Part shown: in pieces, positions 52,393 through 56,655 of the stretch
Layout: the number at the start of each line of letters is the position of its first letter
Numbering within the stretch: the first letter of the stretch is position 1
Assembly: GCA_045837725.1 (NCBI GenBank)
Contig: JBEWZL010000077.1
Coordinates: 496,001 to 560,000, forward strand
Reading direction: 5' to 3'
Source: Vermamoeba vermiformis
Taxonomy: Eukaryota
Length of the DNA: 64,000 bases
Position numbers and translations under genes: made by a program
Notes under the pieces: model-generated
Seen by the model: the letters and a program-made list of their open reading frames with translations, nothing else
Told to the model about the DNA's origin: nothing
Databases searched by the model: none

Positions 52393-54677
52393 CTATTTCT
52401 TATCGACGCCAATACCGGGCTTATTCCAAGGTGCAATTAAGCCATAAGCTTCGCTTCCAAACTTCGCCCAGGGGATCGCCTGCAGCATGTCATTAGATCC
52501 AGTATCTTGCGACCTGGATATGTTCGCTAGTTATATCAAGTATAGCTTACTGTTACTGGATCAGACGTGTCTTTAACTAAAAGAGAGCCATCAAGATCTC
52601 CACCGACACTGGCAAAAAACGAGCGGGTCAGATCCGGAGTTAAAAGGAACAATAGGCTTACGTAGATAGTGGCAGTAAGTGCAAATGAGCCACAGTACTG
52701 AGACTGCTCGCAACCATCATGCCAATCCAAACCTAGTGCATTAAATTTAGTGATATCACGTAACCATTGTTGAAGTGGATCTTGCAAGACGTTTATACAC
52801 GAACAACATTGCTTTAGAAGCGTTGAATCGTGGGATTAATACTTGCGTCGGGACCTATGACCAGTATGCAATATACGTACCTTCTTATTCAGCTCTTGAG
52901 CTTTCAAAATTGTTCGCACAGCCTCCCGGTAGCCTCCGGCTTTATCCATCTTGACATTCGCTCCATCAATAATATCCTAATAAATATGTCATTAATATCT
53001 AATGTATATTCATTATGGAAACGAATCACAATGGTACCTTTAGTTCTTCAACTTGCGTCGCGTTGTGGATCGACTCATCCGCGAAGATCAAAATGCCGTG
53101 CTTTGAGTACTCTTGACGCACCACTTTCCATTCCTCGAATTCTTCTGGCGTTAAATGCGCCGAGAAAGGTTGTTCGAGCATATAACAACGCGTGAACGGA
53201 TGTTCTTTGTTAAGTACCACGTTGTGCAAGAACTCCATGGCAACAGCGGGAGTCCAATCGGAGTTGGCATCAATAGACCACTAGTATCTGCCGTTAGATA
53301 CGCATTTGATAACTATATAGCGACGTACCACGTAGTCAGACACGTGCGGATCCACTTTTTCCTTGAAGAGTTGCACGAGTCTATTAACGATTTGCGAACC
53401 TTTAATTGACCGTTAGTTATGCTCTTAATAAATATGCAAATGTTTTAGTACCTAGGGCGATGTCTCTGTTTAACTTAATCTTAATGTTAGGCGTGTATTG
53501 CAAGCCAAAAGTAGTGGCTTCGACGATCAGATCGATTTCTTTGTTCAAAGCAGCGGTATAAAAGCCTCTCTTCTTCGTGGGCTCGGTGCCAATAAGCTCA
53601 TATATCTACATTAAATGTGAGTTCATATAAAAGAACAACAGAAGGCACGTACAGGTTTGTGAGTGATCTTGCCCCACGCGTCGAACAACGCAATCTCCAC
53701 GGCATTTCGTGCAGTACAGCTAAACTTCTCGGCATTCAACGGGCACTCATCGAGGGCCCTAAACTAAAGTTAGAACCGAACAAAAAGGAAAATGAATCCA
53801 GATGCGCAACTGTCTAAAAATGAGCTTCAGAAATGCCGTAGAGAACACGCGTAATAATTGAAAGGTCATCGGCAGTAATGCCGCATACGTAAGGAACAGC
53901 AGCGAGTTCTTGCAAAAAGCAAAAAAGAAACTGGCCTAACTCGGATTCGAACCGAGGACCTCCCGCTTACTAGGCGGGCGCAATAACCAACTATGCTATT
54001 AGGCCGTTGTTGGTGCGACTTTTTGAAAAGACGTGGTGGCGTCTCGTTCAATAAGAAATTACCTGAAAAACGCTCGTAGGGCCTTGATCTGCGCGCTATC
54101 GTTATCTTTGACGTTCATCGAGGTGAAATATTTGTTGTCAAAACCATTGAACGGATTGTAAGCGGCTGACTCGGCTACGGAAGTAACCTCTTTGATCTGC
54201 ACGCGTGTCAGGACGGTTCTATGGAAATACAAGCTTACCTTTTTGTCCAAAGCTTCGATGTATGTCTTAATGTCGTTGAAGTCTGCATAGTAGACACCTG
54301 GTTTCTTCGGTGGAAGGCCGCATTCGCCCAATCCGCTTATTGAGCCAACCTATGCTCGCTGTTATTTTTCGCTTGTTGCATAAATTAAATTATATCGATA
54401 TGAATGCGAATTGAGTACCTCAACAATTATCAGAGCATTTAAACGCGAATCTGAATAAGAGTGGCTTGTTCTGCACAAATCAACTATTTAATAAGCATAT
54501 TGCTGTTATTCGTATTGCAGTATTAATTTATAAACATTTTACGAATTATCTATCGAGTTGTAATTACCCAAAAGTCGAGCGCAATTGTAACGGTAACTCA
54601 ACCAAGCGCAGTGCAAGATCTACGCCTTCGCACTTGTATGTTGCACTAAATACTGTATTGCTTTGACTGGTGCTCAT
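52393..54677 (-). CDS. Enolase-superfamily dipeptide epimerase (L-Ala-D/L-Glu epimerase family), multi-exon
   Basis: The spliced protein has LPLQLRSTFGTSH..GECGLP, KIK, IDAN, LEQP, ADES, NVKMDKAGG and DLDG. These are the KxK/D/E/D/K and DLD signatures of the family. Confidence 0.85.
53932..54005 (-). tRNA. tRNA-Thr(AGT), inside intron 53759-54062 of the epimerase gene
   Basis: Cloverleaf with acceptor GGCCTAA/TTAGGCC, anticodon arm CCCGC-CTAGTAA-GCGGG and T arm CTCGG-TTCGAAT-CCGAG; oligo-T terminator downstream. Confidence 0.95.
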
Positions 54678-54764
54678 CTTTGGCTGCACAAGATATTGTT
54701 CCCGCAGAAAATCTCGAAACTTTTTCGTGCTCACACCAACCACAGATTCCGTTCATAACGCCAA

Positions 54765-56655
54765 TTACAACATCTGGTTCTTTTTATTATGAAGCAAGGT
54801 CTTGGTATAATTTTTGCCTGGAATAATCTTACCAAGGACACGTCCTCCCTTGGCACCAGTACACGAGGGAACATTCGACTTTGACGGTTGTTAGCACTAT
54901 TACTTTAAATAGTAAAATAAAAATAGACTTACATCGTATCCGTGGATGGCCATCCAAGCCAATAGCGCGAATAATAGGGCTTCTTTAGCTTCACTGCTGA
55001 ACGAGACAGAACGGTTTGAGTCCAATGAGGCGACGTCAACTAAAGGGAATTCTTTTTCAATGTTGAATTGGAGACGCTTCATCAAGTACGGATTGCGACT
55101 ACCACCGCCGGCTATTGTGACCTAGAGCCAATGTATTGAGTAAAAGACCATTACTAAGATCAGGTATGTATGAAAAACTTACTCGTTCGAGGTGTCCAGG
55201 GCACCATGTTTTGTAAGCTTTAGTAATAGAGACTGCCGTTAACTCTGTTAACGTAGCCAAGAAGTCGTGGTCTGTCATTGCTAATTCGTCTTTGTGTCTG
55301 AGCCACTCTTCTCCTAACTTCAACACAAGAGGTTAAAAGTTGACTCTCAGGTCGCGTGTGCAAAACGTACCTTGAACGTAAATAACTCTCTTCCAGTTGT
55401 TTTTGGCGGCTTTGTAGCGAAATAAGGATGCTCAAGCATTATATGCAACAGTTTCTCGTTGACTTTGCCTTGTGCAGCGAGTTTTCCGTCGAGGTCGTAT
55501 TGCAACTCTCCGTTGGTCATTTTAGACGCGTACCAGTCCATCAAGACATTTCCTGGACCAGTGTCGAATCCAACTAAGAGAGGCGTTAATAGGAAGAACA
55601 AATAAAGCAAGTACAACGTACTGGGCTTTTCTGTAGAGTTCGTGGGAGGCAGTAGTGTCACGTTTCCAATGCCACCTAATATAACGTTAGAAGTCAATTA
55701 ATACACGCACAGACATCCTTCCGTACCAATATTTTGATGTGCACGCCATGAGTCGCTTTTATCTTTTGAGCCTAACATTATCGAGTCAAAAATTGGTACT
55801 AACGGTGCACCCTACAATATTAATAAAAGTAAATATAAGTACGTGAGTTAAGGGATAAGGAGATACTTACGTGTCCTCCAGCCGCGACATCAGCCACACG
55901 AAAATCAGCAACTGTCGTGACACCTGTCATTTCGGCAATGACTGCAGCTTCACCTATTTGCAATGTGCTCGAGACTGTGTTATCTGCTGTTACGTCGTGC
56001 CACACTGTTTGTCCGTGCGAGCCTATATTTGGAAATGAGTATCTATACGTGTAAAAATCGTCGCAAAGTCATTGTGACACGTACCAATTAAATCAATTTC
56101 GCTCAATTTAAATCCGTTATTCTCTACGACTTTAATTACTGCATCGGCAAATGCACGTCCTAATTGAAAATTTGCTTGGCATAGTTGCTGTAACGTCAAA
56201 GGAGATCCAGAAAACATATTGAAAATGAGTTCTCGTTCTGCTGTTGGCCATGGAATTGTTTCGAATGCCAATTGTTTAATTGAAATAGGAGGAATTTTAT
56301 CCTGCGAACCATCCTCTGTCTGCTCATGGAGAATCTCTGCGATCGCAACGGTAATTCCATCCGCTGAGGTTCCGCTACGGAGATCAATAATCAGTCAATA
56401 ATTTCAATTAAATACTACTATTTAATTATAATCATTTCAGTTCAACCTGCATTCAATTGTAACTAAGTTGGTTTGTAAAATTAAAATTAAGATTTTGGTA
56501 GGTCCAAGCTTTTGATTGGCAATAATCGCGTTGCAAATAAATGAAGAGAAATTTGCATAATTTTATTGTTGACTTATCACGACGAATTATCAACGTCGGA
56601 TAGAAAATCGCCAGATCCCGTCTTTAAGTTACCTTAAAACTCCAACGACAATCAT
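54765..56655 (-). CDS. anmK: Anhydro-N-acetylmuramic acid kinase (AnmK family), multi-exon
   Basis: [101 protein letters not shown]. Confidence 0.92.

Follow-up and report, generated by a model that had tools for sequence, protein, structure and literature searches.

Neighbouring genes for an AnmK-family kinase and an enolase-superfamily epimerase-like protein, probably of different origins, in Vermamoeba vermiformis

Transfers of the bacterial anmK gene into eukaryotes are only now being reported. In ticks, an anmK gene derived from bacteria, carrying an intron and expressed, has been proposed to be linked to bacterial wall material, and the recombinant enzyme is reported to keep its kinase activity 'to some extent' on 1,6-anhydro-N-acetylmuramic acid (anhMurNAc) (bioRxiv 10.64898/2026.03.13.711553). 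Transfers of anmK, murQ and NamZ have been proposed to provide anaerobic ciliates with a peptidoglycan-degrading route (PMC13198582), and AnmK is counted among the prey-digesting enzymes of Naegleria (PMC9928731). As to the peptide half of the bacterial wall, land plants have acquired L-Ala-D/L-Glu epimerase genes from bacteria, according to a study in which no homologue was found in other eukaryotes (PMC3605383). Little is known of what bacterivorous eukaryotes do with the 1,6-anhydro sugars and D-amino-acid peptides of prey walls. Here we describe a pair of genes on the minus strand of a 64,000-nt stretch of the Vermamoeba vermiformis genome (assembly GCA_045837725.1, contig JBEWZL010000077.1, positions 496,001 to 560,000; hereafter the window), in which a gene of the AnmK/levoglucosan kinase (LGK) family is followed, head-to-tail, by a gene for a member of the muconate-lactonizing enzyme (MLE) subgroup of the enolase superfamily, referred to below as the epimerase-like gene. 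The two are probably independently transcribed genes of different origins that have come to be packed together in a gene-dense stretch.

The exon structures of both genes (Table 1) were compared with proteins of a close relative and with public RNA data. The kinase model is colinear with the relative's kinase (P0001, 415 aa), with 372 identical residues over 415 aligned columns, and the epimerase-like protein aligns without gaps with its counterpart (P0005, 430 aa), 390 of the 430 residues being identical. P0001 and P0005 are encoded uninterrupted on short transcript contigs from the Joint Genome Institute (JGI) and served as stand-ins for the spliced window proteins in the profile and database tests, P0001 being ~90% identical to the window kinase. 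Spliced joints, taken from three raw-read runs of a relative (119, 136 and 171 reads, nearly all of them 90-95% alike) and from the contigs of run X1, were present at introns 2, 3, 4, 5, 6 and 8 of the kinase gene (at least six of the eight) and at introns 1, 4, 5, 6, 7, 8, 9 and 11 of the epimerase-like gene (at least eight of the 11). The original prediction of two co-oriented, multi-intron genes lying 87 nt apart was thus confirmed by the coordinates, the GT-AG introns, the RNA joints and the colinearity with P0001 and P0005. Its argument that the introns speak against contamination also held; spliced RNA and the eukaryotic neighbours agree, and contamination was ruled out on these grounds.

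Exon 1 of the kinase gene is only 23 nt long and is followed by the longest intron of that gene (258 nt, 56375-56632, minus strand), which interrupts the N-terminal nucleotide-binding motif (SGTSxDG) within its serine codon; no RNA joint for this intron was among those listed. In the epimerase-like gene, intron 4 (54062-53759) measures 304 nt, the other ten introns spanning 42-148 nt, and encloses a tRNA-Thr(AGT) gene oriented in the same direction as its host. This tRNA-bearing intron is removed in a run X1 contig (joint 53757/54063). An Rfam scan of 51500-57500 returned nothing beyond the tRNA.

The assignment of the first gene rests on full-length family matches. P0001 matched Pfam family PF03702 with 338.2 bits (cut-off 24) over profile positions 2-366 of 367, and three exons of the window kinase matched it on their own with 29.4, 77.7 and 33.3 bits against the same cut-off. 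P0001 further scored above the cut-off of the NCBIfam AnmK equivalog NF007148 (PRK09585.x; 421.9 bits against 387) and below that of the remaining 13 of the 14 AnmK equivalog models. With E. coli AnmK it shares 40% identity over 396 residues. Among proteins of solved structure, the LGK of Lipomyces (275.5, 242.3 and 241.5 bits) ranked ahead of proteobacterial AnmK (~181-183 bits). The window kinase harbors the SGTSxDG motif, and its GFDTGPGN segment aligns with the xDTGPG motif of LGK and E. coli AnmK, the aspartate of which we take to be Asp182 of the Pseudomonas aeruginosa enzyme. Asp182 is the catalytic aspartate of P. aeruginosa AnmK (PMC10570956). The first gene is thus predicted to encode a 1,6-anhydro-sugar kinase of the AnmK/LGK family that acts in the cytosol and uses ATP, and that would most likely open and phosphorylate anhMurNAc from ingested bacterial walls; on the strength of its sequence, levoglucosan or another anhydro sugar could also be the substrate.

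In a large protein collection, the nearest relatives of the kinase were Caldilineaceae/Chloroflexota proteins sharing 50-55% identity with it, and a protein encoded by a Physarum polycephalum transcript (P0122) was 50% identical. A quick maximum-likelihood tree of 101 rows was built from the window protein, P0001, the Physarum protein, 75 of 80 bacterial anmK loci and 23 database hits, the latter being every fifth of 119. The window protein, P0001 and P0122 grouped together with an SH-aLRT support of 93 (the tool's mark for strong support is 95), and this trio was nested in a 37-row clade with a support of 100 that contains all 11 named Caldilineaceae. A phylogeny had been proposed as a check in the original prediction; it places the kinase with Caldilineaceae AnmK-type proteins, in a tree that holds no fungal sequence, LGK included, and no Naegleria, ciliate or tick sequence. 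Judging from this placement, the kinase gene is of bacterial ancestry with a Caldilineaceae-like source, perhaps by a single transfer common to this lineage and that of Physarum, and its eight introns would have been gained since. MurQ (TIGR00274 above its cut-off) was found in one of five Caldilineaceae genomes (G001-G005) carrying an AnmK-type gene; the canonical route from AnmK to MurQ may thus not hold generally among the presumed donors, an observation that is not decisive either way. A literature search combining AnmK with amoebozoan names found nothing relevant among the papers listed.

The second gene proved harder to name. The Pfam matches of P0005 were to general enolase-superfamily domains only. 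Against the L-Ala-D/L-Glu epimerase models NF011708 and NF041118 it scored 50.9 and 49.2 bits, far short of the cut-offs of 343 and 500, and the top-scoring NCBIfam model, DgcA (NF042940), yielded 104.8 bits against a cut-off of 400. P0005 is not a member of the L-Ala-D/L-Glu epimerase or DgcA equivalogs. The identities first given to the two genes stand at the level of the family, whereas placing the second among the L-Ala-D/L-Glu epimerases falls short of the curated cut-offs, even though its fold and catalytic residues (see below) suit a dipeptide-epimerase-like enzyme. A look-up in the Protein Atlas added nothing beyond these families. An exhaustive search with P0005 retrieved 86 cluster representatives at E≤1e-30, mostly of 400-480 aa, after which proteins of ~340 aa began to appear near E 1e-20. 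None of 17 such short relatives tested scored above any equivalog cut-off, and identity to any short bacterial-type protein reached ~36% at most.

Named members of the family, from 20 looked-up clusters that sample its range, came from Naegleria gruberi (P0128, E 4.8e-79), Acrasis kona (P0129, 1.1e-77), Soliformovum irregulare (P0133, 5.1e-73), Cavenderia fasciculata (P0137, 6.8e-66), Andalucia godoyi (P0141, 4.3e-63), Anaeramoeba flamelloides, Kipferlia bialata, Chloropicon primus and Plectus sambesii, and thus from Heterolobosea, Amoebozoa, jakobids, metamonads, a green alga and a nematode. The Andalucia protein bears the label 'Enolase superfamily member DDB_G0284701', and the window protein shares with this family full-length similarity, a length of about 410-475 aa and the common N-terminal motifs. 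In a family otherwise made up of protist and algal proteins, the record of the bacterivorous nematode P. sambesii holds two members (P0127 and P0283), 42% identical to P0005, which came either from contamination of that assembly or by a transfer to the worm. Our literature searches found no paper on DDB_G0284701 and none on DgcA.

Despite this distance from the named models, the catalytic apparatus of the MLE subgroup is complete. K213, K215, D250, E282, D314, K336 and D389 are invariant in a 28-member alignment and D387 is conserved in at least 90% of its members; the window protein holds all eight. In alignments they fall on the KxK pair, the metal ligands, the second lysine and the DxD motif of Bacillus subtilis YkfB (1JPM), YcjG and the Bacteroides enzyme, so that the signature of the subgroup, with KxK at strand 2, Asp/Glu/Asp metal ligands and a second lysine at strand 6, is present in full; the roles of these residues are presumed from those we attach to the YkfB positions. 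D387-L-D389 aligns with the DLD of 3IJI, 4GFI and YcjG and with the DFD of YkfB, and in dipeptide epimerases this motif, which follows strand 8, presumably binds the free amino group of the dipeptide. The Glu side-chain carboxylate is, we assume, bound in YkfB by the N-terminal Arg24; in that region the alignment to 3IJI is weak (5.9 bits), and the conserved motifs are those of the family itself, FGTSHS...R46xN and GLPPKKP. A confident AlphaFold model (predicted local distance difference test score, pLDDT, 93.5) found its best Foldseek matches in the dipeptide epimerase of Bacteroides thetaiotaomicron (3IJQ/3IJI, solved with L-Ala-D-Glu; template-modelling score 0.85 on the target) and in the dipeptide epimerase of Enterococcus faecalis, with muconate-lactonizing enzymes close behind. 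From sequence and model, the reaction is very probably a proton transfer by two lysines, with an amino-acid derivative as substrate, and most resembles that of a dipeptide epimerase. We picture an MLE-subgroup epimerase or racemase that depends on Mg and performs a 1,1-proton transfer with its two lysines; its fold, its DxD motif and its nearest profiles make inversion at the alpha-carbon the most likely reaction, with a D-Glu-containing dipeptide or N-acyl amino acid as the substrate.

It had been proposed that both genes stem from one bacterial locus and gained their introns later. In the databases most members of either family are bacterial, in line with such a co-transfer. To look for the pair in bacteria, 80 anmK loci, each with flanks of up to 10 kb (1.29 Mb in total), were compared. 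Five members of the eukaryotic enolase family found no match at any of the 80 loci at E≤1e-3. The 17 short bacterial-type queries matched an enolase-superfamily gene at four loci (L006, L009, L010 and L011), all from Caldilineaceae. At L006, the one of the four inspected in detail, that gene lies 3.3 kb upstream of anmK on the same strand and is separated from it by three genes, encoding a dehydrogenase, a member of the ornithine-cyclodeaminase family and a GNAT acetyltransferase. It is of the acid-sugar dehydratase type, with ~95 bits against the talarate/galactarate and gluconate/galactonate dehydratase models and 27 bits against the L-Ala-D/L-Glu epimerase model. The matches at the other three loci lie at the same distance as in L006, and a gene of the DHDPS (dihydrodipicolinate synthase) family also precedes anmK on the same strand in L006 (4506-9940). 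A comparison of P0005 with five whole Caldilineaceae genomes gave a best match of E 1e-6, more than 2 Mb away from anmK, and in E. coli K-12 ycjG sits beside mpaA, 329 kb from anmK. The kinase is 50-55% identical to its bacterial kin, compared with ~36% or less for the enolase member, whose family spans several eukaryotic supergroups. Since the pair was absent from the bacterial loci and the distances of the two proteins to their bacterial relatives are very unequal, co-transfer from one bacterial locus is not supported by the sequences, and we regard the idea as close to refuted. What survives of the proposed bacterial origin is that of the kinase.

The short spacer had further been taken to suggest overlapping or dicistronic transcripts, which would make the pair an operon-like unit with one primary transcript, translated as a dicistron or trans-spliced before the second gene. 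In favor of this, the spacer contains neither AATAAA nor ATTAAA, an acceptor-like TTGTGCAG stands 6 nt before the epimerase-like ATG, and the relative's epimerase contigs run far past their coding sequence: those encoding P0005, P0276 and P0277 are 2250, 2252 and 2244 nt long for a coding sequence of 1293 nt. The AnmK contigs of the same organism, in contrast, measure 1298 and 1304 nt for a coding sequence of 1248 nt, thus leaving ~56 nt in total at most for both untranslated regions (UTRs), and the two proteins sit on separate contigs that are not joined. Because these contigs barely exceed the coding sequence, the UTRs are presumably tiny and the AnmK messenger RNA probably ends inside the spacer. 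An AATAAA within the final AnmK exon, 16 nt ahead of the stop codon, could be the poly(A) signal of this RNA and would fit very short UTRs. An out-of-frame ATG 9 nt past the AnmK stop opens an ORF (open reading frame) of 36 codons that runs across the epimerase-like ATG and would hinder re-initiation on a dicistron; any regulatory meaning of it is conjectural. The acceptor-like TTGTGCAG might still serve a 5'UTR intron or trans-splicing.

Nor is the spacing of the pair out of the ordinary in this part of the genome. The kinase and epimerase-like genes belong to a run of five co-oriented genes, in which 166 nt separate the stop codon of an NmrA-like gene from the kinase ATG, 263 nt (or 281 nt) separate the epimerase-like stop codon from the ATG of the first of two DNase II genes, and 377 nt lie between the DNase II copies. 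The unrelated neighbours are thus nearly as tightly packed, and the 87-nt spacer, although real, is unexceptional; tight packing is the local rule. Together with the short AnmK contigs and the convergent arrangement of the two genes in a related contig, described below, this leaves an operon-like unit unlikely, and joint transcripts, as read from the short spacer, improbable.

Table 1. Positions of the genes and signals discussed; coordinates are those of the window except in the last two rows, which refer to the 1940-nt contig L001.
Feature	Position	Strand	Remarks
AnmK/levoglucosan-kinase family gene	54765..56655	-	9 exons, 8 GT-AG introns, 414 aa
Kinase start and stop codons	ATG 56655-56653; TAA 54767-54765	-	
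Kinase exons 1-5	56655-56633, 56374-56085, 56022-55871, 55811-55727, 55675-55622	-	
Kinase exons 6-9	55573-55371, 55317-55183, 55121-54933, 54878-54765	-	
AATAAA hexamer	54783..54788	-	In last AnmK exon, 16 nt before stop codon
Spacer, AnmK stop to epimerase-like ATG	54678..54764	-	Exactly 87 nt, read directly
Out-of-frame upstream ORF	54646..54756	-	ATG 9 nt past AnmK stop, 36 codons, overlaps epimerase-like ATG
Epimerase-like gene (enolase superfamily, MLE subgroup)	52393..54677	-	12 exons, 11 GT-AG introns, 430 aa
Epimerase-like start and stop codons	ATG 54677-54675; TAG 52395-52393	-	
Epimerase-like exons 1-6	54677-54568, 54470-54419, 54349-54239, 54196-54063, 53758-53653, 53605-53452	-	
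Epimerase-like exons 7-12	53399-53329, 53280-53038, 52976-52881, 52732-52662, 52608-52551, 52479-52393	-	
tRNA-Thr (anticodon AGT)	53932..54005	-	In epimerase-like intron 4; ARAGORN; Rfam RF00005, 70 bits
NmrA-like/NAD(P)-binding gene	56822..57856	-	Upstream neighbour; Pfam PF13460 and PF05368 on two ORFs
DNase II copy A	50371..52129	-	Downstream neighbour; PF03265 on ORFs 50374-51006 and 51136-51417
DNase II copy B	48157..49993	-	Tandem duplicate; PF03265 on ORFs 48246-48527 and 48600-48998
AnmK exon in L001	1573-1463	-	92% identical to P0001 residues 379-415
AnmK exon in L001	1932-1735	-	78% identical to P0001 residues 314-380

The two DNase II copies share their exon pattern, begin with similar signal-peptide-like segments and look like the products of a recent duplication. 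Elsewhere in the window the genes are plainly eukaryotic as well, and include ATG2, RhoGEF, RasGEF and RBR ligase genes in addition to DNase II. No MurQ, NagZ or amidase gene was found among the window ORFs scanned for families, which numbered 82 of the 189 of at least 75 aa.

Conservation of the linkage had been suggested as a check, and the only other genomic locus inspected, the metagenome contig L001 from a close relative, bears on it. Its plus strand carries an intron-containing epimerase-like gene (residues 135-430, stop codon at 1360-1362) and its minus strand the last two AnmK exons, so that the genes lie tail-to-tail with 97 nt between their stop codons; the exons are 78-100% identical to P0001 and P0005. 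Adjacency is thus kept, and same-strand order is not, the arrangement being head-to-tail in the window and convergent in L001; in bacteria, as reported above, the pair was found at none of the 80 anmK loci. A single-gene inversion relates the two arrangements. Since the genes converge in L001, co-transcription cannot underlie the linkage in that organism. Both loci that show the adjacency belong to one narrow lineage. Fusions were also looked for: of 15 predicted enolase-family proteins of excessive length (>500 aa), none has an AnmK domain and three carry other N-terminal domains (ELM2, DSPc and SET), and PF03702 matched none of the 21 enolase-family proteins scanned. Nothing points to a physical interaction between the two enzymes either. 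The differing N-terminal domains hint at other neighbours elsewhere.

In the reading that we favor, each gene is most likely transcribed alone with very short UTRs, in which case the promoter of the epimerase-like gene would lie in the 3' end of the kinase gene. Several observations weigh against this view of two separate genes packed together. The 87-nt spacer is the smallest of the four measured. The relative's epimerase contigs carry ~950 nt beyond the coding sequence, and read depth over 54660-54843 was 0-0.7 with the reads of a relative, mostly 90-95% alike, too low to place transcript starts or ends. Enolase-superfamily genes did turn up near anmK at four of the 80 bacterial loci. Adjacency survived the inversion in L001, as selection for linkage would have it. 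One product can be mapped onto the sugar half of a muropeptide and the other onto its peptide half, and the nearest profile (DgcA, which we take to be an N-acetyl-D-Glu racemase) and the nearest fold (dipeptide epimerase) both belong to enzymes acting on D-Glu substrates. Finally, eight of the nine named genera with a member of the enolase family are bacterivores.

Some of these observations would be explained if the pair were a two-gene cluster for peptidoglycan salvage kept by selection, with regulation shared through chromatin or control elements rather than through a common transcript, the kinase acting on anhMurNAc and the enolase member on L-Ala-D-Glu or on a similar piece of the stem peptide containing D-Glu. 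The adjacency in both the window and L001, the D-Glu dipeptide or N-acyl-D-Glu chemistry suggested by the fold, the DxD motif and the nearest profiles, and the two lysosomal-type DNase II genes directly downstream, which fit the digestive set of a phagotroph, are all consistent with it, as are the published accounts of the anmK/murQ/NamZ route in ciliates (PMC13198582) and of AnmK in prey digestion by Naegleria (PMC9928731). The adjacency in L001, however, is weak evidence of selection, because the two organisms are close and a one-gene inversion itself preserves adjacency. None of the over-long family members carries an AnmK domain and three have ELM2, DSPc or SET domains, the family is also found in the picoalga Chloropicon primus, the cut-offs of the L-Ala-D/L-Glu epimerase models are missed by far, and the scanned ORFs (82 of 189) yielded no MurQ, NagZ or amidase. 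The supply of anhydro substrate to the kinase would also be limited, as eukaryotic lysozymes are not known to produce 1,6-anhydro ends. Joint peptidoglycan salvage by the two products is plausible, and a cluster kept by selection appears to us possible but doubtful. The bolder proposal is that the DDB_G0284701 family is the murein-peptide epimerase of phagotrophs, acting on L-Ala-D-Glu or another D-Glu fragment, and that in this lineage it is held beside AnmK in a minimal cluster of two genes, one for each half of the anhydro-muropeptides, which has survived an inversion; this is somewhat more doubtful again.

What the locus means depends on this choice. The kinase gene adds another old transfer of anmK to those coming to light, and its partner belongs to an enolase family without an assigned function that is present in many protists, model amoebae among them. 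Should the linkage be functional, it would offer a concrete and cheap hypothesis for that family, namely epimerization of D-Glu peptides, and would represent a pair of eukaryotic catabolic genes brought together from different sources; were the family indeed to act on murein peptides, the D-glutamate of the prey would be made usable. If the linkage is not functional, the locus would amount to ordinary tight gene packing and one old bacterial gene transfer.

The likeness of the window kinase to bacterial AnmK extends over the full length of the Pfam family, with 182.7 bits for P0001 against the P. aeruginosa enzyme. Unlike the bacterial genes, it is encoded by a nine-exon eukaryotic gene whose nearest kin are found in Caldilineaceae and not in Proteobacteria, and its predicted role is catabolic rather than one of recycling, because the host gives no indication of having a murein wall itself. 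The best match of solved structure by sequence is the LGK of Lipomyces starkeyi (4ZXZ, 5TKR, 4YH5), nearly full-length, an enzyme that also comes from a eukaryote; far nearer to the window kinase, however, are the Caldilineaceae AnmK-type proteins (~440 bits, 50-55% identity). Compared to the tick gene, for which a Chitinophagaceae donor and one intron in the 5'UTR have been reported, the window gene points to a Caldilineaceae-like donor and has eight introns within its coding sequence (bioRxiv 10.64898/2026.03.13.711553). An adjoining enolase-superfamily gene is not mentioned in the tick, ciliate and Naegleria reports, in which the word 'epimerase' occurs not at all for ticks and once, for another enzyme, for ciliates.

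The epimerase-like protein shares its fold, KxK motif, metal ligands, second lysine and DxD motif with the dipeptide epimerases 3IJQ/3IJI, YkfB (1JPM/1TKK) and YcjG (1JPD), and P0005 is 25% identical to E. coli YcjG over 262 residues. It differs from them in being ~90-100 residues longer, with an insert of ~70-90 residues in the capping domain around residues 75-145, and in the motifs FGTSHS and GLPPKKP, which are the family's own; the window gene, unlike E. coli ycjG, does not lie beside an mpaA-like gene. DgcA (NF042940), the closest profile to P0005, also scored highest among the models against P0006 (97 bits) and against each of the 17 short relatives tested. With respect to the land-plant epimerases (PMC3605383), the window family is a different and more divergent lineage that escaped such similarity searches; the two have in common that they are enolase-superfamily genes of the epimerase type residing in eukaryotes without murein.

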